Part shown: in pieces, positions 30,959 to 41,905 of the stretch | Layout of the letters: the number at the start of each line of letters is the position of its first letter | Position numbering within the stretch: the first letter of the stretch is position 1 | From: Capsulimonadaceae bacterium | GTDB lineage: Bacteria; Armatimonadota; Armatimonadia; Armatimonadales; Capsulimonadaceae | Reading direction: 5' to 3' | DNA length: 64,000 nt | NCBI GenBank assembly: GCA_036504535.1 | Contig: DASXUY010000022.1 | Span: forward strand, 5,650-69,649 | Translations under genes and position numbers: made by a program | Notes under the pieces: model-generated | Told to the model about the DNA's origin: nothing | The model's database searches: none | Seen by the model: only the letters and a program-made list of their open reading frames with translations

Positions 30959-32977
30959 ATGTTCGCAGTGTCGCTTATAATTGTAGGTTTGCTACTCATT
31001 TTTGCTCCCATAGGAGCGAGTGCCATGACTGGCGCTCACAATATCCTGGGAACGCTCATTTGTATGATTTCTGGTCTTGCCCTTGCGCTCGTCGGGCTTG
31101 TTGTCGCCGTCTGGCAGGCGTGGTATCGACGCACCAGCGCTGACCAGGCGTTCGTCCGCACAGGCAAGGGCGGAAGTCGCGTTGTGCTCGATGGCGGCAC
31201 ACTTGTTGTACCGATGTTCCACCGGGTCATCGAGATCAACCTCAAGACCATGAAACTTGGCGTCAACCCGCGAGGCGCTAATGCGCTGATCACCCGCGAT
31301 AACCTTCGCGCCAACGTCCTTGCACAGTTCTATATTCGAGTTGCCGCCGACGAGGAGCATATCCTCAACGCTGCCCGCTCGCTTGGCGAAAACAGCGTTA
31401 ATGCGGAAGCTGTCGAGGCGCTCGTTAGCGAAAAGCTCGTGTCGGCCCTCCGCGCAATCGCATCGCAAATGGACCTTTTCGAGATCCATACGAAGCGCGA
31501 CGAGTTCGCGGAAAAGGTCAAAGAGCATGTCAAGTCCGACCTTGAGGCGAACGGCTTGTTACTGGAGTCGGTCACCATCTCCGAACTCGACCAAACGGAT
31601 CCGTCCGAGCTGAGCGACAACAACGTGTTCGACGCGCAAGGTAAGCGCAAGATCACCGAGATTACGGCAGCTGCGGCAATCGAGCGCAATAATCTGGAGC
31701 GCGACGCGGAACGTGCCCGAAAGATCAAGGACGTCGATACGCGGCAGCAAGTGCTCGCCCTTGAGCGCCAGCAGGCTGAGGCCGAGGCGTCGCAGGCAAC
31801 AGAAATCGCCAAAGTACGGGCCGATAAAGAGCGCGAGGCGCAGGAGGCCGTCATCACCCAGCAGCGGCAGGTTGAATTGGCCAAGATCGAGAAAGAGCGC
31901 CAGGTGCAGGCGCAGGAGATCGCCCGCGAGCAGGCCATCGAAGTAGCACGCACGCAGCAAGAGCAAGCCGTTCAAGCCGCCCAGGTCCAGCGCGACGGCG
32001 CCATTCAAATGGCAAATGTCGAGCGCGAGAAGTCCGTCGCCGTTGCGGATCGCCAGCGAGAGATTGCGCTCGCCGAACAGGAGATGGCGCGAGCCAAGGC
32101 CGAAGAGGCCGCACTTAACGCCAGTGCTGAGCGAGAAAAGGCAGGCCAGCAGGTCACGACAGTCACGCAGCTCGCAGAGGCAGACCGAGAGGCGAGCAAG
32201 AAGATCATCGCCGCCAAGCAGGAGATCGAGCAAGGACGACTGCGCCAGCAAACAGCCGCTGACATCGAGGCCTATACAAAGGTGAAGCAAGCCGAGGCCG
32301 AACGAGAAGCGGCGACCAAGCAGGCGGAGGCGAAACTGCAACTCGCACAGGCTGAATCAGCGTCTATGGAGCAGATCTCGAAGGGCCAAAACGCGCTCCA
32401 AATGGTTGCGGTCAACGTAGCCCGAGAGCAGGTCAACGTCGAGCAGGCCAAGGTCGCCGTGGAACGCCAGCAGCTTGAGAACCGGCAAGAGTTCGCCGAG
32501 GCTGGCATCCAGCTTGAGATCCAGCGCCTGACCATCCAGGCCGGCCGAGATGTCCAGATGGAGTTCGCAAGGTCGCTGGCGGCGTTCCTCAGCAACGGCC
32601 ACATGACCCTCTACGGCACACCGGAAACCGCGACGACTATGCTCGACAATATGTCGAAAGGCTTCGCGGCAAGGTCCCTCGTCGACGGCTTCATCAGCGG
32701 CCCCGCGTCGAACGGATCTTCCGGTGACGGCCTATCAACCCTGCTTTCCGGCATGGGGAGCATTTTGCAGCCGATGATCGACAAGGCATCAGGAGGCACA
32801 AAACTGTCGCCGGACGCTGCGGCGGACCTAGCACGCAACCTTGCAAACAACCCCGTGTTCCTTGCGGTGCTCAACGAGGCTGTTCAGAAAGCACCCTCGG
32901 AATCGCCCGCCACAGCCGCGCCGGCAGCCGAACCCAAGGCAGCCGCCGCCGACGGAGCAAGCGCCAAACGCAAATAA
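30959..32977 (+). CDS. Flotillin-like SPFH/band-7 protein (FloT/YuaG-like) with a long coiled-coil.
   Basis: N-terminal transmembrane segment. SPFH domain. An EA/QA-rich coiled-coil (EAEASQATEIAKVRADKEREAQEAVITQQRQVELAKIEKERQ...). Follows an NfeD gene, as in yuaF-floT. Confidence 0.8.
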   Translation: MFAVSLIIVGLLLIFAPIGASAMTGAHNILGTLICMISGLALALVGLVVAVWQAWYRRTSADQAFVRTGKGGSRVVLDGGTLVVPMFHRVIEINLKTMKLGVNPRGANALITRDNLRANVLAQFYIRVAADEEHILNAARSLGENSVNAEAVEALVSEKLVSALRAIASQMDLFEIHTKRDEFAEKVKEHVKSDLEANGLLLESVTISELDQTDPSELSDNNVFDAQGKRKITEITAAAAIERNNLERDAERARKIKDVDTRQQVLALERQQAEAEASQATEIAKVRADKEREAQEAVITQQRQVELAKIEKERQVQAQEIAREQAIEVARTQQEQAVQAAQVQRDGAIQMANVEREKSVAVADRQREIALAEQEMARAKAEEAALNASAEREKAGQQVTTVTQLAEADREASKKIIAAKQEIEQGRLRQQTAADIEAYTKVKQAEAEREAATKQAEAKLQLAQAESASMEQISKGQNALQMVAVNVAREQVNVEQAKVAVERQQLENRQEFAEAGIQLEIQRLTIQAGRDVQMEFARSLAAFLSNGHMTLYGTPETATTMLDNMSKGFAARSLVDGFISGPASNGSSGDGLSTLLSGMGSILQPMIDKASGGTKLSPDAAADLARNLANNPVFLAVLNEAVQKAPSESPATAAPAAEPKAAAADGASAKRK

Positions 32978-33209: not shown

Positions 33210-33929
33210 GTGGACGCAACCGTACTCCAACATTTTGCTCCGTTCACCCTATCGTCGGCCTGCTATGCCGCCGGATACAGCGTCGGGCTGGGCGCGTTCG
33301 CGTGGATGGCGCATCGGCGGCGGTTGTGGACGTCGGGGATGATCCGCCTGATGGCGGCGGGGCTGATCGGCGGCCTCGTTTTCGCCAATCTCGCCCAGCT
33401 TATCTTCGCTCACGAGCCTGGCAAGTCGGTCTTGGGGGCGCTAGCGGGTGGGTATCTCGTGGTCGCGATCTACAAACGCCGCCTCGGCATCCGACGCGCG
33501 ACTGGCGACCTCTTCGCTGTGGCGCTCTCGGCTGGGGAGGCTGTGGGGCGGTTTGGCTGCCTTTTCGGCGGCTGCTGCTACGGCCGCGCAACGGCTATGC
33601 CGTGGGCCATCGCGCAGCACGGAGCCATGCGCCACCCCACGCAGCTTTACCTTGCGGCGGCAAGCGCAGCTATTCTAGCGGTTCTGCTTGTGCTGGAGCG
33701 GCGACGCCCGCCGGAGAATACGCTGTTCTATGTGCAAGGTGTTCTCTATTGCACCGCCCGTTTTACCATCGAGTTCTTCCGTGACACCAGCACCCTCGCC
33801 CTGGGGCTGACGTCGGCGCAATGGGCCTGCATCGCTGGCGTCGCCTTCTTCGGCACGATGCTCGCTCGGCTGCGTCAAGTGGAGGCAGCGCGGGCAGGAG
33901 GGACTGCGTCGGAGGCGGCGACAGCATGA
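33210..33929 (+). CDS. lgt: Prolipoprotein diacylglyceryl transferase (Lgt) family.
   Basis: Polytopic membrane protein. GRFGCLFGGCCYGR...PWAI...RHPTQLYL matches the Lgt signature region (GRxGxFxNxE / HPTQLYE); this is a Cys-containing variant. GTG start. The TGA overlaps the ATG of the next gene. Confidence 0.65.
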   Translation: MDATVLQHFAPFTLSSACYAAGYSVGLGAFAWMAHRRRLWTSGMIRLMAAGLIGGLVFANLAQLIFAHEPGKSVLGALAGGYLVVAIYKRRLGIRRATGDLFAVALSAGEAVGRFGCLFGGCCYGRATAMPWAIAQHGAMRHPTQLYLAAASAAILAVLLVLERRRPPENTLFYVQGVLYCTARFTIEFFRDTSTLALGLTSAQWACIAGVAFFGTMLARLRQVEAARAGGTASEAATA

Positions 33930-34342
33930 TGCGATGTTCGAACTGCAATGCCGAGGTATTCAACAATAAGACTGTGTGCCCAAACTGCGGCAATAACGTT
34001 CCGACAGCCACACCAACGCCTTTTACCGACGACCTACCGGCAATTACGAACTCGCAACGCCTGCCAGATCGCGAGGCATATTTTGCGGGGGTGTGGTTAG
34101 CCATCTTCACTGTTATTCTCGCCAGTATCGTAACGATGGCAACAGGAGCGTGGCCGCTGTTCTTTGCTGGTCCGATATCAGCGTTACTGCTCTCCTTTCG
34201 CCAGCGGGCAAGTTCTCCAGATAATGCACGTGGATTGATCATGGGTCTTGTTTATTGCTTTGGCGGCGTCGCGACACTTTACCTGGGGGCACTTGCTTTG
34301 TGTAGAGTCGCCGCACTGTATCTGGTGATGCTCGCGCAATAA
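33926..34342 (+). CDS. Zinc-ribbon membrane protein, array member 1 of 14.
   Basis: MMRCSNCNAEVFNNKTVCPNCGNNV, then transmembrane helices, then ...DNARGLIMG... and a C-terminal LALC. The ATG overlaps the lgt stop (ATGA). Confidence 0.7.
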   Translation: MMRCSNCNAEVFNNKTVCPNCGNNVPTATPTPFTDDLPAITNSQRLPDREAYFAGVWLAIFTVILASIVTMATGAWPLFFAGPISALLLSFRQRASSPDNARGLIMGLVYCFGGVATLYLGALALCRVAALYLVMLAQ

Positions 34343-34365
34343 GGCGTTGCGGGAGTTCGGTGATC

Positions 34366-34926
34366 ATGGTTATCAAATGCCCTAACTGTGCGAGCAACAT
34401 TTCCGAGGATACAATCATCTGTCCGGAATGCGGCTACAAGCCCATGACGGATTTGTCGCTGGAAGTCAGTGGGGAATCACAGGAACCGATTGGTTGCGTG
34501 CAACCTGCCAAATGCCCAAACTGTGCCGCTAGCATACCAGAGGGTGCGATCCTGTGCCCGGAATGCGGCTACGATACCAAGACCATTTGGCCGCCGTCCC
34601 CAAGAGGTCGATTCGCCTCGCCAGCGGCGACAACTGGTGCCGAAAAGCGTGCTCGTGCAGGCGGCGTTGTGGTCTCGGTAGCGGTTCTCGTGCTTTTCGG
34701 CGTCGTTTCGTCACAGCTAGGCTACGGTCCGATTGTCTTTTTGGGCCCTTTAGCGGTGCTGGCGATATCATCATTAACAAGCGAGCACTACCCACAATTC
34801 GCTGTGGGGCTTCGTATCACTCTCAAGTTTGTACGTGGAGCGATAATCATCGTGGTCCTGGGCGCCCTCGGCGCGTTTTCAATATGCGTATGTTTTTGGC
34901 TGTTGGAGGCGCTATTTCATCGATGA
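34366..34926 (+). CDS. Zinc-ribbon membrane protein, array member 2 (duplicated zinc ribbon).
   Basis: MVIKCPNCASNISEDTIICPECGY followed by a second ribbon KCPNCAASIPEGAILCPECGY, then 2-3 transmembrane helices. GGGAG ribosome-binding site. Confidence 0.7.
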   Translation: MVIKCPNCASNISEDTIICPECGYKPMTDLSLEVSGESQEPIGCVQPAKCPNCAASIPEGAILCPECGYDTKTIWPPSPRGRFASPAATTGAEKRARAGGVVVSVAVLVLFGVVSSQLGYGPIVFLGPLAVLAISSLTSEHYPQFAVGLRITLKFVRGAIIIVVLGALGAFSICVCFWLLEALFHR

Positions 34927-35321
34927 CCGCCAAATGCCCACACTGTGCTGCCGACATACCGGGGCGCCCCACGCTGTGTCCGAACTGCGGTCACAAGATC
35001 ACGGCGGCGTGGACCCAGCGTTTAGGGCTTATGCCGCTCAATATGGACGCCGATCTGCGTCCCTTTTTTGCCGGAATTAGGGCGCCCATTTTACTTGTAG
35101 TTCTATTCACCTGGCTCGCGTTCCAGTTCAACGACTGGGAGCTAGGGTTTGGCGGCCCGGCGACAGCGCTCACAGCTGCTGCGGCGTTGTGGTGGAAGCA
35201 CCGTCAACTTTCGCGCGGCCTCGGCATGGGCATCATGTGGATATTGGCGACAATCGGCGTGATATTCCTCGGCGCTCTGGTGATCTGCGGCGTTGAGACG
35301 GCGATTGGGGCGAACAAGTGA
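34923..35321 (+). CDS. Zinc-ribbon membrane protein, array member 3.
   Basis: MTAKCPHCAADIPGRPTLCPNCGH, transmembrane helices, RQLSRGLGMG, C-terminal LVICGV. The ATG overlaps the previous stop (ATGA). Confidence 0.7.
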   Translation: MTAKCPHCAADIPGRPTLCPNCGHKITAAWTQRLGLMPLNMDADLRPFFAGIRAPILLVVLFTWLAFQFNDWELGFGGPATALTAAAALWWKHRQLSRGLGMGIMWILATIGVIFLGALVICGVETAIGANK

Positions 35322-35328
35322 GACGGCA

Positions 35329-35718
35329 ATGACAACCAAATGCCCTAACTGCGCTACTGGCATCTGCGGTGACGAAAAGATGTGCCCGAACTGTGGCAAG
35401 CTCGTGCTGATTCAAGCCGTTGGGTCGTCTGGCACGAGAAGCTCTCTCGGCGCAATCGGCTGCTTTCAAGCCTTTATTTTGGTGTTGATTGCTATGTTGG
35501 CGATTGATCGTATTGCCAACATAGCATGGGAGAGGAAGTCATTTCTCGTGTATGCCGTCGGCTCTCTTGCCGTTTTGGCAGCGATCGTCGCCGCAAAGGC
35601 ACGGTTGCCGCGCTTCGCAAGTAATGTCCTTGTTGTTGTGCTTGTCTTCACCTTGATCGTCGCGATGATGGGCTTGGGAGCATTCGTGGCCTGTTGGGGA
35701 CCGGGGAACGGCTTATGA
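35329..35718 (+). CDS. Zinc-ribbon membrane protein, array member 4.
   Basis: MTTKCPNCATGICGDEKMCPNCGK, transmembrane helices, KARLPRFASN, C-terminal FVACWG. Confidence 0.7.
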   Translation: MTTKCPNCATGICGDEKMCPNCGKLVLIQAVGSSGTRSSLGAIGCFQAFILVLIAMLAIDRIANIAWERKSFLVYAVGSLAVLAAIVAAKARLPRFASNVLVVVLVFTLIVAMMGLGAFVACWGPGNGL

Positions 35719-36116
35719 CCATCAAATGCCCAAACTGCGCTACTAGCATCTCCAATGACGTGGCCCTGTGTCCGGAATGCGGCTGCGAAATCGCGGTGGA
35801 TGCGTCGGCTGTCAAGAACGAGATGGCTACACCATCGGGGAAAAGTGTTCCGCCAATCTGGTACCGCACGCCAGCCGCGATTTACATCTGGATAGGTGGT
35901 TTAGGTATGGTGTTTATAATCGCTGCTCTTCAGCGGACATTGGCGTCATTCTTCTGTGGCCTGACCTTATACTTCGTGGTTGCTACGGTCGCGATCTGGA
36001 AGGCGCCCCGTAGTCCAAAACGGACCATAGACTTGGTCTTGTTACTGTTGTTGATGGCAACTCTGATTTGCCTAAGTGGTTTCTTTACTTGCTGTGCTGT
36101 GATTTCGAAGGACTGA
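35715..36116 (+). CDS. Zinc-ribbon membrane protein, array member 5.
   Basis: MTIKCPNCATSISNDVALCPECGC, three transmembrane helices, KAPRSPKR, C-terminal FFTCCAV. ATGA overlap with the previous gene. Confidence 0.7.
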   Translation: MTIKCPNCATSISNDVALCPECGCEIAVDASAVKNEMATPSGKSVPPIWYRTPAAIYIWIGGLGMVFIIAALQRTLASFFCGLTLYFVVATVAIWKAPRSPKRTIDLVLLLLLMATLICLSGFFTCCAVISKD

Positions 36117-36124
36117 GCGGCTCA

Positions 36125-36532
36125 ATGACAACCAAATGCGCGAACTGTGGCGAGCCGCTCTCTAGCGACGATAAGCTATGCCCGAACTGCGGGGCGGCAC
36201 TGGGCGAGATGTGGCCGCCGCCGCCCTCGTCTCGGGGCGACGAGCTTCCGGGCCCAGCTAGAAGCTTGCCACCGTGGCTTCAGTGCTTGATAGGCGTCTT
36301 TATTGTCTTCGCTCTTTCTACTGGACTGGCGTTGGTAGCGAGAGAAGCTAAGCTGTTCTCCGTTTATGCGGTCGGTGTTGGGCTTCTTCTACTGGTCGCG
36401 ATTATAGCCGTTCGAAACTCACCTGGATTCAAAAAGAACTCAGTGGCCGTAGCCGCTCTCTTCCTCGGTGGGTCGCTGGTCGTATTCTGGAATGGCTTAA
36501 TAACGTGCTACGGTATTTTTCGGCACAGATAA
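36125..36532 (+). CDS. Zinc-ribbon membrane protein, array member 6.
   Basis: MTTKCANCGEPLSSDDKLCPNCGA, transmembrane helices, RNSPGFKKN, C-terminal LITCYG. Confidence 0.7.
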   Translation: MTTKCANCGEPLSSDDKLCPNCGAALGEMWPPPPSSRGDELPGPARSLPPWLQCLIGVFIVFALSTGLALVAREAKLFSVYAVGVGLLLLVAIIAVRNSPGFKKNSVAVAALFLGGSLVVFWNGLITCYGIFRHR

Positions 36533-36537
36533 ACGCT

Positions 36538-36927
36538 ATGACCATCAAATGCCCAAACTGCGCTAGCGCCATTCCCGAGGACACGGCACTGTGTCCGGAA
36601 TGTGGCTACGAGCACGTCGCCGACTGGCCGCACGTTACGATGGGCGAAGCATATGGTCCGCTTGGCTGCCTTCAGACATTCTTGGTTGTGTTCGCAACGT
36701 TGCTCGCGATCGCAGGGGTCGGCTATATCGCGGCGGAGAAGAGCTCGCTCATCGTATATATCATCGGGGCGGCGTGCGTTGTGCTGGCAAGTGCCCTCGC
36801 AACCCGTCGGTTACCGCGAATAATGAAGAACACCCAGGCACTTCTGTTCGTGATCATTGTAATTGGGGTTATGACCTGGTTTGGCGCTTTCGTGACATGT
36901 TCTAGGTCGATGGGGCCCGTATGGTAA
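36538..36927 (+). CDS. Zinc-ribbon membrane protein, array member 7.
   Basis: MTIKCPNCASAIPEDTALCPECGY, transmembrane helices, RRLPRIMKN, C-terminal FVTCSR. Confidence 0.7.
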   Translation: MTIKCPNCASAIPEDTALCPECGYEHVADWPHVTMGEAYGPLGCLQTFLVVFATLLAIAGVGYIAAEKSSLIVYIIGAACVVLASALATRRLPRIMKNTQALLFVIIVIGVMTWFGAFVTCSRSMGPVW

Positions 36928-37322
36928 CCAAATGCCCAAACTGCGCCGCGACGCTTACTGGCGACGAAACCTTGTGCCCGAACTGCGGACACGAGATCGC
37001 TAGCGCATGGCCGCCCCCGCTCGCCGAAGAGCTGCCGGATATGCCCAAGTTCCCGCCGCAACGCGATACGCAGGCGTATAATGCTGGCGGCTTAGCATCA
37101 CTTGGTCTCGTGTTCCTATCGCTTTACCTTGCGTCGGTTACTGGAAAGTGGCTGGTCATCTGTGTGGGCCCAATCATCGCGTTCTTGTGTGCTGCGTACC
37201 AATGGAATAGATATCGCGACCTGGCACGCGGGCTGATCATGGGCGTCGTCATCTTTTACGGAGGCGTCGCGGTACTCTGGCTGGGACTGCTTGCTATTTG
37301 TAGCTGGGGTACATACCGATGA
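36921..37322 (+). CDS. Zinc-ribbon membrane protein, array member 8 (nearly identical to member 9).
   Basis: MVTKCPNCAATLTGDETLCPNCGH...NRYRDLARGLIMG...LAICSW. Overlaps the previous gene by 7 nt (ATGGTAA). Confidence 0.75.
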   Translation: MVTKCPNCAATLTGDETLCPNCGHEIASAWPPPLAEELPDMPKFPPQRDTQAYNAGGLASLGLVFLSLYLASVTGKWLVICVGPIIAFLCAAYQWNRYRDLARGLIMGVVIFYGGVAVLWLGLLAICSWGTYR

Positions 37323-37723
37323 CACCCAACTGCCCAAACTGTACCGCGAAGCTTATCGGCGACCAAACCCTGTGCCCGAACTGCGGACACGAGATCGCTA
37401 GCGCATGGCCGCCCCCGCTTGCCGAAGAGCTGCCGGATATGCCCAAGTTCCCGCCGCAACGCGATACGCAGGCGTATAATGCTGGCGGCTTAGCATCACT
37501 CGGTCTCGTGTTCCTATCGCTTTACCTTGCGTCGGTTTCCGGAAAGTGGCCGGTAATTCTGGTTGGCCCCATCATCTCATTCTTGTGTGCCGCGCACCAA
37601 TGGAATAGATATCGTGATCTCGCACGCGGCCTGATCATGGGCGTCGTCCTCTTTTACGGCGGCGTCGCGGTACTCTGGCTTGGACTCCTTGTTATTTGTA
37701 GTAATATGGCAGGATACCGATGA
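37319..37723 (+). CDS. Zinc-ribbon membrane protein, array member 9 (recent tandem duplicate of member 8).
   Basis: MTPNCPNCTAKLIGDQTLCPNCGH. About 90% identical to member 8 at nucleotide and protein level. ATGA overlap. Confidence 0.75.
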   Translation: MTPNCPNCTAKLIGDQTLCPNCGHEIASAWPPPLAEELPDMPKFPPQRDTQAYNAGGLASLGLVFLSLYLASVSGKWPVILVGPIISFLCAAHQWNRYRDLARGLIMGVVLFYGGVAVLWLGLLVICSNMAGYR

Positions 37724-38136
37724 CACCCACATGCCCAAACTGCTCTGCGACGCTTACCGGTGCCGAGACCCTGTGTCCGGAATGCGGGTTCTCGCTACTG
37801 GGTGTCTGGCCGCCGCCGCCCGACACAGTACCGGCACCAGCGCCGAAGCGCACATGGCGCGAACGGCGTCCGTATATTCTCGGCAACGTGGCCGGCATCG
37901 CGATCATTCTAGGGTCCATATTCCTCACCGGTTTTATCGATGCTTGGTGGCTATTCCTCGTGGGAATTGGACTCTCTGGGATCATCGGTCGGTTAATTCA
38001 ACCTCGCGCACCTGAATTCGGGCGGGGTATGTCCATCAGCCCGCTATACTTTGTCCTCATCGTCGCCGTTCTGATCCTCGGCGCACTCGCCACCTGCTTC
38101 GTGGGCCTGCTGTTTAGCCGCGCTCATTCGCCGTAA
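37720..38136 (+). CDS. Zinc-ribbon membrane protein, array member 10.
   Basis: MTPTCPNCSATLTGAETLCPECGF...RAPEFGRGMSISP...LATCFV. ATGA overlap. Confidence 0.7.
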   Translation: MTPTCPNCSATLTGAETLCPECGFSLLGVWPPPPDTVPAPAPKRTWRERRPYILGNVAGIAIILGSIFLTGFIDAWWLFLVGIGLSGIIGRLIQPRAPEFGRGMSISPLYFVLIVAVLILGALATCFVGLLFSRAHSP

Positions 38137-38152
38137 ATGAAACAGAGTCGCC

Positions 38153-38542
38153 ATGCCCAACGTATGCAAAAACTGTGGAGCCGAGCAAACCGGAACGTCA
38201 ACGGTCTGCCTGAACTGCGGAGTGAGTGTTGCGCCGCTGACGCCGCAAGTCCAGACCTTGATGATAGGCAGGCGTCGCGACCCGTATTTAGGGTTCATAC
38301 TCTCTGTATTGGGCCCGCTTGGCGTGGCGGCGATATGCCTGAGCTTTTGGCCGTCGTATACTATTTTTGCGTGGATCGTATCTATCATCGGGACGCATGG
38401 GATTGGCGATGCCATAAAAGAGAAGTGGCCCCTTTTCGGCGGTGCCCTAAAGCGGGGCATCGAATTACAGTTCACAGTACTGGTCGTACTTGTCCTTGGA
38501 GGCTTGGCCATTTGCGCCGGAGCAGCGCGTCAAGGTGCTTGA
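38153..38542 (+). CDS. Zinc-ribbon membrane protein, array member 11.
   Basis: MPNVCKNCGAEQTGTSTVCLNCGV, then transmembrane helices, C-terminal LAICAG. Confidence 0.65.
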   Translation: MPNVCKNCGAEQTGTSTVCLNCGVSVAPLTPQVQTLMIGRRRDPYLGFILSVLGPLGVAAICLSFWPSYTIFAWIVSIIGTHGIGDAIKEKWPLFGGALKRGIELQFTVLVVLVLGGLAICAGAARQGA

Positions 38543-38599
38543 ACGTCCGAAGCACAATCTGTGTGCTATTCGTTTGGGCGGTAGGGAGCGTAAAGTGCT

Positions 38600-38962
38600 A
38601 TGACCTACATATGCAAAAACTGCGACTCCGAGCTAACCGAAACGTCGAACGTCTGCCCAAACTGCGGCGAGCCCGTCGCGCGGAAGCCGACGTGGCACGA
38701 GCGGCGTTTGTATATTGGCGGCATCATTACGGGACTCGTTATAATAATTGGGACAATATTTATCACGTCTACGCTTACCTCTACGCGGGCATTTATAGTC
38801 CCCGCTGCAATGGCGGCGTTTGTTGGAGTGGCCATTCTAAGCACCTCGTTTCAGTTTCGGTCCCCGGAATTCGGGCGCGGCCTTCGAATCAGCCCTGCGT
38901 ATTTTTTCGTTGTTGTAGCGGTAATGCTTCTTGGTCTATTCGTCGTATGCCTCGCTGAATGA
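38600..38962 (+). CDS. Zinc-ribbon membrane protein, array member 12.
   Basis: MTYICKNCDSELTETSNVCPNCGE...RSPEFGRGLRISP...FVVCLAE. Confidence 0.7.
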   Translation: MTYICKNCDSELTETSNVCPNCGEPVARKPTWHERRLYIGGIITGLVIIIGTIFITSTLTSTRAFIVPAAMAAFVGVAILSTSFQFRSPEFGRGLRISPAYFFVVVAVMLLGLFVVCLAE

Positions 38963-38983
38963 TGAACCGAAACCGATTTACCG

Positions 38984-39415
38984 ATGACATACACCTGCAA
39001 AAACTGTGGAGATGAGCTAACCGAAACATCGATCGTCTGCCCGAACTGCGGCGAGCGTGTCGTCACGCACTGGCCCCCGTTCATCATGCAGGATGACGCG
39101 CCCGAGCCCGAGACCGAGCCCCAGCCAAAGCCGCTCATTCGGCGCGGCGACAAAGCGGTGGGCTTCGCCTTGTCGTGCATCCCAGCGCCGGTTACGATCC
39201 TCGTGGAGCGCCTGCTTCCGAACGTCGGCGCGACGGCAGCGCTTCTTGGCTATGGACTTGTGATTGTTGCAGCGAGCAGTATTCAGTATCGCAGACCAGA
39301 CGTTTTCGCGGGCATGGTGCGCGGACTCAAACTACAGCTACTCGTAGCAGCATTGCTCATGCTGGGGTCAATATATACTTGCTTTACTACCGGCCCTTAT
39401 AGCCAACGCCAATAA
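38984..39415 (+). CDS. Zinc-ribbon membrane protein, array member 13.
   Basis: MTYTCKNCGDELTETSIVCPNCGE...RRPDVFAGMVRGLKLQ...IYTCFT. Confidence 0.7.
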   Translation: MTYTCKNCGDELTETSIVCPNCGERVVTHWPPFIMQDDAPEPETEPQPKPLIRRGDKAVGFALSCIPAPVTILVERLLPNVGATAALLGYGLVIVAASSIQYRRPDVFAGMVRGLKLQLLVAALLMLGSIYTCFTTGPYSQRQ

Positions 39416-39491
39416 TCTTTACGTTTGTTCGAGTGCTACCGGGGTTGGCTAAGGGAGTCGCATACCTTTGCGGCCCGCAAGAACGAAAACA

Positions 39492-39869
39492 ATGAACACT
39501 ACGTGCAAGAATTGCAATAAGCCGATCAGTGACGACGACATCAAATGTCCATCCTGTGGCCATGTGCCCCCCGAGCCGTGCACCAAGGGCCAGTCACCGG
39601 GGATGGCCCTTGGAATGATAGGCGGGATAGGGGCCACACTTGTGTTGGCATTCATGGGTAGCATTTTAATCTATTGTGGCTTGTTCATAGCGGTCCCGGT
39701 TTGGCTTGGTTGTCTTTTTGCACTCGACTCACACGCGGTTAAGGTTTCCGCACGGACGCCAGGGTTTGCGCGAGGGTTGCGGCTAGGAATCCGTCTGCAA
39801 ATTCTCGGATTTATGGTGTTGATTATCGAAACCACCATCAAGCTTCACAACTGGTATGGAGTGCAATGA
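39492..39869 (+). CDS. Zinc-ribbon membrane protein, array member 14.
   Basis: MNTTCKNCNKPISDDDIKCPSCGH...RTPGFARGLRLG. An alternative upstream start exists at 39468. Confidence 0.65.
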   Translation: MNTTCKNCNKPISDDDIKCPSCGHVPPEPCTKGQSPGMALGMIGGIGATLVLAFMGSILIYCGLFIAVPVWLGCLFALDSHAVKVSARTPGFARGLRLGIRLQILGFMVLIIETTIKLHNWYGVQ

Positions 39870-39913
39870 AAATCACCCGATGCTCCCTGCTCGCCAACCC
39901 ATCGCCCCGCCTC

Positions 39914-39989
39914 CTAGCGGCGAAGCCGTTCAAGGGTGCAGCGTCACGCTGCCGCCAGCCGCGTAGGCTACCCCTGCGGCGAGCAGTCC
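39914..39989. repeat. Dispersed ~70-bp structured repeat, copy 2.
   Basis: ctagcggcgaagccgttcaagggtGCAGCGtcacGCTGCcgccagccgcgtaggctacccctgcggcgagcagtcc. Confidence 0.6.
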
Positions 39990-40034
39990 TAAACCGTTAC
40001 CTTACAACCGACACCATACCCTGAACACCAAACC

Positions 40035-41441
40035 ATGACCCAACCCGCCGCGATCACCGATCCCTGGACCGAAGACACCGCCAGCCTGTGCCCGACATGC
40101 CTTGCGCACGTCCCGGCGCGCATTGCGGTCGACGGCGGCGGAGTCTGGATCACGAAGCGCTGCCCCGCGCACGGCGAATCCAGCGCGCTGCTGGCTAGCG
40201 ACGCCACCGAGTACTTGCGCCTGCGCCAGTTTGTCCCGGACCGCAGCGGAGCGAACTGCTGCTGCGGACCCGGCGACTCGTGCACCGGCGCGCCTCCCGT
40301 GTGTGTCCTGCTGCTGGAGATCACGCAAGCCTGTAACCTGCGCTGCCCAACATGCTACGCCGACGCGCACGGGCACGAGTTTATGACCGTCGACGAAGCT
40401 CGGCGGCGACTCGATTCGTTCTTCGTAAAGCAGCCAGTGCTCGATGTGCTCATGATCAGCGGCGGCGAGCCCACCATCCACCCCCAGTTTCGCGAGATCC
40501 TCGACCTCGCGCTGTCGTACCCGATCAACCGTGTGCTCATCAACACCAACGGCCTCCGCCTTGTCCAGAGCGACACTGTGCTCGATGCCATCGCCGCGCA
40601 CCGAAACCGCGTCGAGCTGTTCCTGTCGTTCGCCAGCTTCCGCGCCGACGTCCACGAGCGGCTCTACGGCCGTGACCTGCGAACCGAAAAGACCGCCGCC
40701 GTCGATCGAGCGCGTGACGCCGGACTCTTCACGACCATCGTGCCGACAATCGAACGCGGCGTCAACGACGACGAGATCGGCGACCTTTACCGGTTCGCCC
40801 TGTCCCGCGACAACATCAACGGCATCAACTTCCAGCCCGTCATGAGCGCGGGGCGCTACGATCACGGATACGATCCCGCCGGGCGCATGACCCTCACCGA
40901 CGTGATCGCCGCCCTTGAGTCGCAAACCAACGGCCACCTCATCCGCACCGATTTCGTCGGCCTGCCGTGCTCGCATCCCGACTGCTGCGCACTCACATAC
41001 GGCTTTCTCGACGCTGCCCGCACCCGAATCGCTCCGCTCCCGCGATCGCTCGACGTTGCCCGGTACATGGACCTGTTCACGGACCGCATCAGCTTCTCGG
41101 GTCTCGTCGGCGGGGCGTTGCGACGCGTCTGGAGCGACATGGCGCATATGCGAGCAGCGCAAACCCTGCGCGACCTCGGGACCCTCTTCGCCACCGCTGG
41201 CATACGCGACGTGCTCCCACTTATCGGTCGCCCGGAAGAGTTTGGCAAACGTGTCCTGCGTATCGTCGTCAAGCCGTTTATGGACGCGCACACGTACGAC
41301 CAGCATCGTGTTGAGCAGTGCTGCACGAAGATCATCGACGAGACGGGTCAGCCCGTCTCGTTCTGCGAATACAACGTTCTGCGCCGCGGGGTAACGCTCC
41401 CGGCGCGCCGTGGCTCCGTGCCGTTGTCGGTCGTCGGGTAG
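40035..41441 (+). CDS. Radical SAM enzyme with an N-terminal Cys/His-rich (zinc-ribbon/rubredoxin-like) extension and a C-terminal Cys cluster.
   Basis: CNLRCPTCY (CxxxCxxC) plus the GGEPTIHPQF SAM-binding motif. N-terminal LCPTC...(22)...CPAHG and CCCGPGDSC. C-terminal CSHPDCC and QCCTKIIDETGQPVSFC. Confidence 0.8.
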   Translation: MTQPAAITDPWTEDTASLCPTCLAHVPARIAVDGGGVWITKRCPAHGESSALLASDATEYLRLRQFVPDRSGANCCCGPGDSCTGAPPVCVLLLEITQACNLRCPTCYADAHGHEFMTVDEARRRLDSFFVKQPVLDVLMISGGEPTIHPQFREILDLALSYPINRVLINTNGLRLVQSDTVLDAIAAHRNRVELFLSFASFRADVHERLYGRDLRTEKTAAVDRARDAGLFTTIVPTIERGVNDDEIGDLYRFALSRDNINGINFQPVMSAGRYDHGYDPAGRMTLTDVIAALESQTNGHLIRTDFVGLPCSHPDCCALTYGFLDAARTRIAPLPRSLDVARYMDLFTDRISFSGLVGGALRRVWSDMAHMRAAQTLRDLGTLFATAGIRDVLPLIGRPEEFGKRVLRIVVKPFMDAHTYDQHRVEQCCTKIIDETGQPVSFCEYNVLRRGVTLPARRGSVPLSVVG

Positions 41442-41623: not shown

Positions 41624-41905
41624 ATGAGCGAATTCGATAGACAAGAACAGGGTCGACGGTATGAGGGGTGGGCGTTTACGTACTGCAAAGCGGCGCTGCT
41701 GGTGCTTATCTTCCAGCGTTACTCGCTCATCGCCCTATCAGCGCTCTCGGTGATCTTCTACCTCGCCGCCGCCGCGAAGGGCGTTGACAAGTACCGCTGC
41801 TTCGTCAAGCCGCCCTGGGTCACCATCGCCTGGACCATCGTCCTCATCGCCCAGCTTTACGCCATCCACATCCACGGTTGGCCCCCATGGCGGCTGATCG
41901 GGTAG
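41624..41905 (+). CDS. Small (93 aa) two-transmembrane-helix membrane protein of unknown function.
   Basis: GGGGGAG ribosome-binding site before the ATG. Two hydrophobic helices (AALLVLIFQRYSLIALSALSVIFYLAAAA; VTIAWTIVLIAQLYAI). Confidence 0.4.
   Translation: MSEFDRQEQGRRYEGWAFTYCKAALLVLIFQRYSLIALSALSVIFYLAAAAKGVDKYRCFVKPPWVTIAWTIVLIAQLYAIHIHGWPPWRLIG

Follow-up and report, generated by a model that had tools for sequence, protein, structure and literature searches.

INTRODUCTION

Bacterial lipoproteins are marked by a lipobox, [LVI]-[ASTVI]-[GAS]-C, and signal peptidase II requires Gly, Ala, or Ser at position −1 (PMC12462473). In the cavity of Lgt, the catalytic residues occupy the periplasmic half, and it is on the periplasmic side that the lipobox cysteine has to be (PMC4728403); the HGGL region of the enzyme has been proposed as the binding site of the lipobox peptide (Mao et al.). 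A second, separate line of work concerns the radical SAM enzyme Tes/GDGT-MAS, whose bacterial homologues have been proposed to make membrane-spanning lipids (PMC8941075). The nearest published idea to the system considered here is a prediction that a Lipocone enzyme lipidates a “GS” lipobox-like motif in proteins encoded in its own operon (PMC12419801). Here, we describe a locus in a 64,000-nucleotide stretch of DNA from a Capsulimonadaceae bacterium of the phylum Armatimonadota (contig DASXUY010000022.1; hereafter, the window), in which 14 tandem genes for small membrane proteins (g1–g14, 33926–39869) lie between a gene of the Lgt family and a radical SAM gene. All coordinates refer to the whole window and the + strand, and labels L001–L088 denote the fetched Lgt-flanking loci. 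All but one of the small proteins have a C-terminal cysteine at the outer end of their last predicted helix, and comparison of sequences and gene neighborhoods points to an undescribed, putative cysteine lipidation or lipid-handling system composed of this family, an Lgt-like enzyme, and a Tes-like radical SAM enzyme.

A FAMILY OF SMALL MEMBRANE PROTEINS WITH A CONSERVED C-TERMINAL CYSTEINE

Alignment shows the 14 genes to be paralogous members of a single family of small inner-membrane proteins, with products of 120–186 amino acids. Briefly, each protein begins with a CxxC-(10)-CxxC zinc ribbon, in which C5, C8, C19, C22, and G23 are invariant among the 14 proteins and the two CxxC knuckles have the spacing of ~10–12 residues that is typical of PF13240, PF13248, and PF12773; a Pro-rich linker, often containing WPPP, and three hydrophobic helices follow. 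The ribbon is the only part recognized by Pfam and NCBIfam, g2 scoring above the Pfam gathering score and the other members mostly just under it. An AF2 model of g8, calculated from the alignment of the 14 paralogs (mean pLDDT, a per-residue model quality measure, 78.8; ~85 in the membrane part), consists of the ribbon (1–25), a disordered linker (26–49), and helices at 50–74, 78–93, and 99–132, with Cys127 near the end of the last helix. Lys and Arg are biased toward the predicted cytoplasmic segments (69 vs. 21 on the predicted periplasmic segments), the loop between transmembrane helices 2 and 3 contains 38 K/R and 9 D/E, and in minimal members with one helix a strongly basic stretch precedes that helix. 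The predicted topology is thus N-in/C-out: a basic segment is followed by an in-to-out helix, which would place the terminal cysteine at the periplasmic face.

The cysteine occupies a single alignment column in 13 of the 14 paralogs. The exception is g14, and an independent Logan assembly (P0004) contains an identical g14 protein, likewise without the cysteine. In the array, the extended motif is L-G-[AGLS]-[LFI]-x-x-C at the outer end of the last helix, followed by an unconserved tail of 3–12 residues. Mean pairwise identity among the 14 paralogs is 0.47 in the ribbon, 0.16–0.23 in the transmembrane helices, 0.86 in the cysteine column, and 0.06 in the tail, a contrast that argues for position-specific selection rather than helix composition.

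Full-length profile searches for orthologs, both word-indexed and exhaustive, were abandoned because they were swamped by multi-zinc-ribbon proteins (18,578 hits, mostly via the ribbon); apart from the window proteins, true relatives over the full length were very few (P0183, P0184, P0228, P0229, and P0268). Orthologs were therefore gathered through the neighboring Lgt-like gene: a scan of one genome per species with the Lgt-like protein yielded 80 loci, and the ortholog counts below refer to 52 zinc-ribbon/transmembrane proteins from 36 loci of Armatimonadota and Eremiobacterota. The cysteine is kept in 42 of the 52 orthologs, and 34 of the 36 loci contain at least one copy bearing it. In these 42 proteins it lies within the last 3–16 residues, leaving tails of 2–15 residues (median 7.5), and the positions before it are strongly biased: Leu at −6 (38/42), Gly at −5 (41/42), [LF] at −3 (37/42), Ala or Ser at −2 (26/42), and a bulky residue (L, V, I, W, F, T, or M) at −1 (41/42), the remaining protein having Ala there and none having Gly or Ser. 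The original prediction had proposed a short hydrophobic motif ending in cysteine near the C-terminus; the alignment bears this out and extends it to L-G-x-[LF]-x-x-C, a feature of homologous position both within the array and among orthologs.

The same proposal included a loop motif, R-x-P-x-F-x-R-G-L, between the last two helices. The strings on which it was based do share one aligned position, which in the g8 model corresponds to the cytoplasmic start of helix 3, although the complete form is restricted to three members: P-x-hydrophobic-x-[RK]-[GA]-hydrophobic is strict only in g10, g12, and g14, R-G-L without the proline remains in g1, g3, g8, and g9, and little beyond [RK]-x-P is left in g4–g7. 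The orthologs carry L-R-[RP]-x-Y-P-x-F-A-R-G-[LI]-G-[YF]-G, strict in 23 of 52. Since it is strict in so many orthologs and in only 3 of the 14 array members, the loop motif is, as judged from these alignments, ancestral and decaying in the array, while the cysteine is retained. Both motifs are thus homologous features of the family, aligned within the array and recurring in orthologs.

It could be argued that the motifs have no specific function, the proteins being ordinary zinc-ribbon membrane proteins encoded near lgt by chance and the motifs a by-product of how hydrophobic helices are composed. Proteins combining a zinc ribbon with transmembrane helices are indeed extremely common, as the number of full-length profile hits illustrates, and the loop motif is degenerate in the array. 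Nevertheless, Leu(−6), Gly(−5), and the cysteine are conserved by position across phyla. Furthermore, a hidden Markov model (HMM) of the transmembrane part, from which the ribbon had been removed, matched exactly 14 proteins in the window, all of them array genes; outside the window it matched Lgt-like-adjacent genes only, with no match in 40 loci of other phyla (L045–L088), and the association survives shuffling of gene order. This explanation is very unlikely, with hardly any weight left to it.

COMPARISON OF THE MOTIF WITH THE LIPOBOX

The C-terminal motif had been described as lipobox-like in composition and located at the wrong end of the protein. The likeness holds at −3 and −2 and fails at −1, where the array has I, T, A, V, or L and the orthologs, with the one exception of an Ala, a bulky residue, never Gly or Ser. 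Likely genuine lipoproteins encoded at the same loci contain L-[AS]-[GA]-C followed by a Gly/Ser-rich linker; the bulky residue at −1 is thus specific to the small-protein family, because canonical lipoproteins of the same organisms have Gly or Ala there. The “wrong end” is a misleading description: the basic loop, the last helix, and the cysteine are oriented in the manner of a type II signal peptide, and the C-terminal end is topologically the right place, since the active site of Lgt is also on the periplasmic side. In terms of prediction, a basic n-region, an in-to-out hydrophobic helix, and a cysteine at the outer face are all present. By contrast, g1–g14 start with the zinc ribbon in place of an N-terminal signal peptide, the helix bearing the cysteine is the last one, and the tails of 2–15 residues leave no mature domain after the cysteine in either the array or the orthologs.

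The contrast in identity between ribbon and tail, the tandem multiplicity of the genes, and the adjacent radical SAM enzyme are also what would be expected of an array of short-lipopeptide precursors, in which the ribbon and membrane part would serve as the leader and the tail as the core, as in ribosomally synthesized and post-translationally modified peptides (RiPPs); the precursors would be S-lipidated and cut before the cysteine to release peptides of 3–13 residues. Such a scheme is decidedly improbable. The bulky residue at −1 in 41 of 42 orthologs is incompatible with the need of signal peptidase II for Gly, Ala, or Ser (PMC12462473), tails are as short as 2–3 residues and often hydrophobic, the radical SAM enzyme is of the lipid-acting Tes type rather than a SPASM peptide maturase, and the module contains no conserved protease or exporter. 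Of the hallmarks of a RiPP precursor array, the pattern of variability is present, whereas the radical SAM enzyme is Tes-like instead of being a SPASM/twitch maturase, and a conserved protease or transporter is missing from the module.

THE LGT-LIKE ENZYME

The gene immediately upstream of the array (33210–33929, + strand) encodes a 239-amino-acid Lgt-family transferase of a divergent clade, whose stop codon overlaps the start codon of g1 by 4 nt (ATGA). Overlaps of 4–7 nt occur at five more array junctions, and most of the remaining gaps are 5–23 nt. The coupling to lgt that had been pointed out previously is thus evident in the ATGA overlap, and it is strengthened by adjacency to the same Lgt clade in ~40 species-level genomes. 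The protein matches PF01790 with 96.1 bits (cut-off 24.9) and has the seven-helix Lgt fold, although it remains below both NCBIfam Lgt cut-offs (TIGR00544, 49.8 vs. 118.9 bits; NF000778, 64 vs. 334 bits). The essential residues R143, G154, and R239 of Lgt, together with E243, R246, and D129, are retained as R114, G125, R184, E188, R191, and D100, and are invariant among 22 members of the clade; C117, C122, C123, C181, and C207 are likewise invariant cysteines of the clade. Of the ~50-residue periplasmic head domain only ~20 residues are left, forming a small low-confidence hairpin (121–141). The sequence G-K-[ST]-[VI]-L-G-x-[IL]-A-G-G-Y, which replaces the HGGL region, marks the module clade, and in a neighbor-joining tree the module Lgt-like proteins are separated from canonical-type Lgts lacking the module neighbors.

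The substitution pair N146C/E151C (“GCFFGGCCYG”) was considered as a mark of a specialized enzyme and rejected, since it is present in ordinary-looking Lgts without the module; N146C-type substitutions in Lgt have also been reported elsewhere (PMC13251419). The only Armatimonadetes genome in the published census, that of Fimbriimonas ginsengisoli, contains two PF01790 genes (PMC13251419, Table S2).

DISTRIBUTION OF THE MODULE AND THE TES-LIKE RADICAL SAM ENZYME

Relatives of the Lgt-like protein number more than 1,000; the best 120 are 58–73% identical, and those among them with a named source are from Armatimonadota, including Capsulimonas corticalis CCAX7_006970. At ~40 species-level loci of Armatimonadota and Eremiobacterota, the Lgt-like gene is flanked by 1–3 zinc-ribbon/transmembrane genes in shuffled order, so that the 14 copies of the window stand out against the usual 1–3, and no family member was found beside other Lgt types among the sampled loci. 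The neighborhood constitutes a four-gene module consisting of the Lgt-like gene, the zinc-ribbon/transmembrane/cysteine gene, a Tes-like radical SAM gene, and a gene for a membrane protein of ~93 residues, which is present in C. corticalis, in many metagenome-assembled genomes (MAGs) of Armatimonadota, and in Eremiobacterota. In an HMM census of the fetched loci, wherever the flank was long enough, the radical SAM gene occurred together with the Lgt-like clade, in most cases along with the 93-residue gene, and neither gene was found in any of 33 canonical-type Lgt loci from other phyla (L048–L074 and L076–L084).

The order in Armatimonadota is Lgt-like, zinc-ribbon/transmembrane, radical SAM, and 93-residue gene, and that in two Eremiobacterota loci (L023 and L031) is radical SAM, 93-residue, zinc-ribbon/transmembrane, and Lgt-like gene. 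The small protein of the latter two is a minimal one, with a ribbon, a basic stretch, and one helix ending in LGALAIC-SNLGNGGMH; minimal members composed of a ribbon, one helix, LGALAIC, and a tail are also found in L026 and L028. Two further loci (L032 and L039) encode a membrane protein without a ribbon but with F-L-R-G-L and a later PWPC. In Thermincola-like Firmicutes (L058 and L085), a ribbon-less transmembrane protein of 87–98 residues ends in LLAGVVCN or LTVVLCF and is followed by the radical SAM and Lgt-like genes. Because these Firmicutes forms lack the ribbon and keep the cysteine, the helix with its terminal cysteine is the most widely retained feature of the small partner, the ribbon and loop motif being lineage-specific additions. 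In Planctomycetota (L075 and L087), a radical SAM gene is followed by the Lgt-like gene, and the accompanying membrane protein is a different one, without the cysteine.

The radical SAM enzyme of the window (40035–41441, + strand, 468 amino acids) is a homologue of GDGT-MAS/Tes, a third partner beside lgt and the array that the original prediction did not include. It aligns with GDGT-MAS (PDB 7tol_A) over residues 13–315 with E = 9.2e-49, covering both the zinc ribbon and the radical SAM core, and scores 61.7 bits for Zn_ribbon_HMPTM and 75 bits for Radical_SAM in Pfam. It is below the NCBIfam cut-offs for Tes (NF045702, 195 vs. 450 bits) and TrsS (NF045646, 229 vs. 490 bits), as are the module radical SAM enzymes from four other phyla or lineages. 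Among PADLOC defense models, the sole matches were to generic viperin-type radical SAM proteins, on this same protein. The fourth gene (41624–41905, + strand) encodes the 93-amino-acid membrane protein (EGWAFTYCKAA … KYRCFVKPPW), orthologs of which follow the radical SAM gene in most module loci (for example, L002 12668–12946 and L031 2050–2448); this protein belongs to no Pfam family and contains two invariant cysteines within EGWAFT[FY]CKAA … [EK][WY]RC[FW][VA]KPPW.

The module would also accommodate a membrane lipid-remodeling complex in which the Lgt-like enzyme works with the Tes-like radical SAM enzyme and the 93-residue protein. The small proteins would be non-substrate subunits or adaptors of this complex, the true substrates being membrane lipids, for example in the making of membrane-spanning ones. 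The ribbon may then dock the soluble radical SAM enzyme to the membrane, and the cysteine may form a disulfide or a metal/thiol contact with a periplasm-side cysteine of the Lgt-like enzyme (GRWGCFFGGCCYG) or of the 93-residue protein. The radical SAM enzyme is a clear GDGT-MAS/Tes homologue of the kind proposed for membrane-spanning lipids (PMC8941075), potential contact residues are provided by the five invariant cysteines of the Lgt-like clade and the two of the 93-residue protein, and the radical SAM enzyme carries a zinc ribbon of its own. Since Planctomycetota keep the radical SAM and Lgt-like genes without the transmembrane cysteine protein, the pair can function in its absence. Nonetheless, this explanation, the main rival of the one preferred below and only somewhat less likely than it, is doubtful, in the docking of the enzyme and the cysteine contact as in the adaptor role itself: the Firmicutes form lacks the ribbon and keeps the transmembrane cysteine, so that the conserved core cannot be the ribbon; Lgts without such partners have the GC..GCCYG cysteines as well; and a structural subunit is not expected as 14 divergent copies with unconserved helices.

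The best NCBIfam score of the radical SAM enzyme is to the selenoprotein family TrsS, and the Firmicutes loci continue after the Lgt-like gene with an ArsP/SaoE-like permease, a protein with a Se_S_carrier domain, and a YedE–ICMT/PEMT-like fusion (L085 5716–9417; L058 8590–10235). These features would suit a transmembrane thiol, persulfide, or selenium relay, in which the C-terminal cysteine of the small protein and the Cys-rich Lgt-like and 93-residue proteins would supply the radical SAM enzyme with sulfur, selenium, or reducing equivalents. Such a relay is improbable, because every TrsS score is under the cut-off (210–354 vs. 490 bits) and the sulfur and selenium neighbors are absent from the window and the Armatimonadota loci; furthermore, we know of no relay that uses the Lgt fold. 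Members of the ICMT family carboxyl-methylate prenylated C-terminal cysteines in eukaryotes. In L046 (187–771), an open reading frame (ORF) just upstream of the Lgt-like gene looks ICMT-like, by its C-terminal sequence alone.

Several irregular loci were encountered. An apparent fusion of the Lgt-like and radical SAM genes in L039 was rejected: the genes are in different frames, and the fusion had arisen because ORFs were called from stop to stop in DNA rich in G+C. In L047 (5036–7428; bog Armatimonadetes MAG PLAD01000229), the Lgt-like frame contains stops and the ribbon runs into the radical SAM frame, representing either a pseudogenized module or an assembly error. In several long-read MAGs, the radical SAM gene appears as two overlapping ORFs (L024 9223–10634, L025 14303–15958, and L042 13331–14744), which are probably frameshift errors rather than biology.

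PROPOSED MECHANISM AND ITS IMPLICATIONS

The explanation that we prefer, although tentatively, is that a dedicated Lgt paralog may modify the small proteins on their C-terminal cysteine and leave them uncleaved, the Tes-like enzyme being part of the same pathway. Its basis comprises the homology of the paralogs, the conservation of the motif, the predicted topology, the Lgt fold with its catalytic Arg and Glu residues, and the cross-phylum synteny; from these we infer the modification of the cysteine, the group transferred, the absence of cleavage, and any action of the radical SAM enzyme on the product. In this scheme, helix 3 of the acceptor would slip into the Lgt-like transferase from the side, as a lipoprotein signal peptide does, and the cysteine thiol would receive, at the outer face of the membrane, a diacylglyceryl (or related) group taken from a phospholipid. 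With a bulky residue before the cysteine, no cleavage by signal peptidase II would be expected, and the lipid-modified product would remain an integral protein of the membrane. The Tes-like enzyme and the 93-residue membrane protein would work in the same pathway, the radical SAM enzyme perhaps being recruited by the cytoplasmic zinc ribbon.

H103 and N146 are required in Escherichia coli Lgt. Several observations speak against the acceptor proposal, the first being that H103, N146, and E151 are replaced in the Lgt-like enzyme by L75, C117, and C122, respectively; all three positions are, however, known to vary in distant Lgts (PMC13251419). The N146C/E151C type is shared by module-less Lgts of Acidobacteriota, Nitrospinota, Desulfobacterota, Aquificota, and Elusimicrobia, and if the Lgt-like protein were the only Lgt of its genome, the neighborhood might reflect regulation or assembly and not a substrate relation. 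On the acceptor side, the residue at −1 departs from every known lipobox, the cysteine is missing in 10 of the 52 orthologs as well as in g14, and the Planctomycetota version has a membrane protein without it. All module proteins are rich in conserved cysteines, which fits a thiol or redox role equally well, and the rationale for 14 substrate copies of a single enzyme is not obvious.

In multi-copy loci, one copy is often Cys-less like g14 yet keeps the ribbon and the loop motif (L033 8744–9142, L037 3269–3712, L038 1991–2434, L040 8716–9222, and L042 9069–9485), which hints at a regulatory or decoy subtype among these sequences.

A more elaborate version, to which we give only a small chance, would make the small proteins lipid carriers or primers: the cysteine would be loaded with diacylglyceryl in the outer leaflet, and its tails would be coupled by the ribbon-held radical SAM enzyme to an inner-leaflet lipid. 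The product would be a protein-linked membrane-spanning lipid, or would feed into bacterial tetraester/tetraether synthesis, and the 14 copies might tune membrane architecture in the Capsulimonadaceae bacterium.

If the cysteine is lipidated as in the preferred explanation, this would be the first Lgt-family enzyme acting on a C-terminal uncleaved acceptor and the first Lgt with a dedicated operon-encoded client family, and the notion of a bacterial lipoprotein, together with that of the role of second Lgt copies, would be widened. The pairing with a Tes/GDGT-MAS-like radical SAM enzyme offers a concrete way to approach, by genetics, what bacterial Tes homologues do, and C. corticalis is a cultured organism with a single-copy module; these homologues bear on the origin of membrane-spanning lipids of the branched glycerol dialkyl glycerol tetraether (brGDGT) type, which are palaeoclimate proxies. 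Even if the cysteine is a redox or contact residue, the locus represents a conserved, unannotated four-gene membrane system of Armatimonadota, Eremiobacterota, and some Firmicutes and Planctomycetota.

MEMBERS OF THE ARRAY AND THEIR SURROUNDINGS

The extent originally given for the array, 34923–39415, covers g3–g13 and leaves out the first two members and the last; the whole array spans 33926–39869, all on the + strand. The first gene, g1 (33926–34342), encodes a zinc ribbon and three transmembrane helices with LGALALC (nucleotides 34283–34303) and a tail of 12 amino acids. In g2 (34366–34926), the ribbon is doubled (Zn_ribbon_3, 49 bits; DZR, 38 bits in Pfam) before three transmembrane helices and LGAFSIC (34867–34887). 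The next five members combine loops of varied sequence with the terminal motif: WKHRQLSRGL and LGALVIC (35268–35288) in g3 (34923–35321), ARLPRFASNV and LGAFVAC (35674–35694) in g4 (35329–35718), WKAPRSPKRT and LSGFFTCC (36072–36095) in g5 (35715–36116), RNSPGFKKNS and WNGLITC (36488–36508) in g6 (36125–36532), and RRLPRIMKNT and FGAFVTC (36880–36900) in g7 (36538–36927). The modeled member g8 (36921–37322) has the loop NRYRDLARGL and LGLLAIC (37281–37301), and g9 (37319–37723) ends with LGLLVIC (37679–37699). Complete loop motifs are found in g10 (37720–38136; PRAPEFGRGM, with LGALATC at 38077–38097), in g12 (38600–38962; FRSPEFGRGL, with LGLFVVC at 38930–38950 and a tail of three amino acids), and in g14 (39492–39869; ARTPGFARGL), which has IETTIKL in place of a C-terminal cysteine. 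The loops of g11 (38153–38542) and g13 (38984–39415) are EKWPLFGGAL and YRRPDVFAGM, and their cysteines lie in LGGLAIC (38495–38515) and LGSIYTC (39362–39382), respectively.

The proteins of g8 and g9 (36921–37723) are 87% identical, compared with 24–40% in other pairs, which indicates, at the sequence level, a very recent tandem duplication inside an old, diverged array. Gene calls of the Joint Genome Institute (JGI) on the source contig, a metagenomic one of 220.7 kb (JGI 3300035523), miss g9, g10, g11, and g14, so that 4 of the 14 array genes are absent from public annotation; g3 and g4 are truncated, and two short antisense ORFs are called instead (L001 10403–11679 and 12496–13114, corresponding to window ~37323–38599 and 39416–40034). 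Between 34001 and 40000, G+C is 0.556–0.568 (0.62–0.63 in the flanks) and AT skew is strongly negative (−0.15 to −0.16), in keeping with a coding strand whose codons for hydrophobic residues are rich in T. A promoter scan of the array gave no signal above chance, and a terminator scan found none convincing inside it. Directly upstream of the Lgt-like gene, at 30959–32977, lies the gene of a 672-amino-acid SPFH/Band 7 (flotillin-like) protein, which contains an extended coiled region rich in Ala, Glu, and Gln; this neighbor is not conserved in C. corticalis or L003.

COMPARISON WITH KNOWN SYSTEMS

A literature search returned no description of the gene combination of this module, of a C-terminal lipobox-like acceptor, or of the small-protein family. 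The system shares with the Lgt/lipobox pathway an Lgt-fold enzyme that keeps the phosphatidylglycerol-binding and gating Arg residues, as well as an acceptor with a basic stretch, an in-to-out helix, and a predicted cysteine at the outer face preceded by [LF] at −3 and [AS] at −2. It differs in that the acceptor helix is the last and not the first, is 20–30 residues long, and carries an additional L-G at −6/−5; 2–15 residues follow the cysteine in place of an anchored mature domain, and cleavage by LspA is not expected with the bulky −1 residue. The enzyme itself is without H103 and N146, has lost the greater part of the head domain, and does not reach the NCBIfam cut-offs for Lgt. Second Lgt copies (Mycobacterium smegmatis MSMEG_5408; plasmid lgt near conjugation lipoproteins; PMC13251419) are comparable as N146C-type paralogs, some of which lie beside likely clients, although there is no report of such a copy having C-terminal acceptors, partners with a zinc ribbon, or a neighboring radical SAM gene of the Tes-like kind.

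The module radical SAM enzyme has the same zinc-ribbon and radical SAM architecture as archaeal Tes/GDGT-MAS (PDB 7TOL), although it is under the Tes and TrsS cut-offs and is paired with the Lgt-like and 93-residue genes in nearly all module loci. The predicted Skillet-1 Lipocone with its “GS” lipobox-like proteins (PMC12419801) likewise couples a membrane lipid-transferase gene to genes with an atypical lipobox; its enzyme, however, belongs to another superfamily, its motif is N-terminal before large extracellular domains, and its acceptor is Ser. Finally, PGF-CTERM/archaeosortase, MYXO-CTERM, PEP-CTERM, and LPXTG systems also combine a short motif at a C-terminal transmembrane helix with a dedicated membrane enzyme encoded nearby. 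Those signals are carried by secreted proteins with a signal peptide, and the motif precedes an out-to-in helix that is later removed, whereas the bulk of the array proteins is predicted to be cytoplasmic and their motif follows an in-to-out helix.

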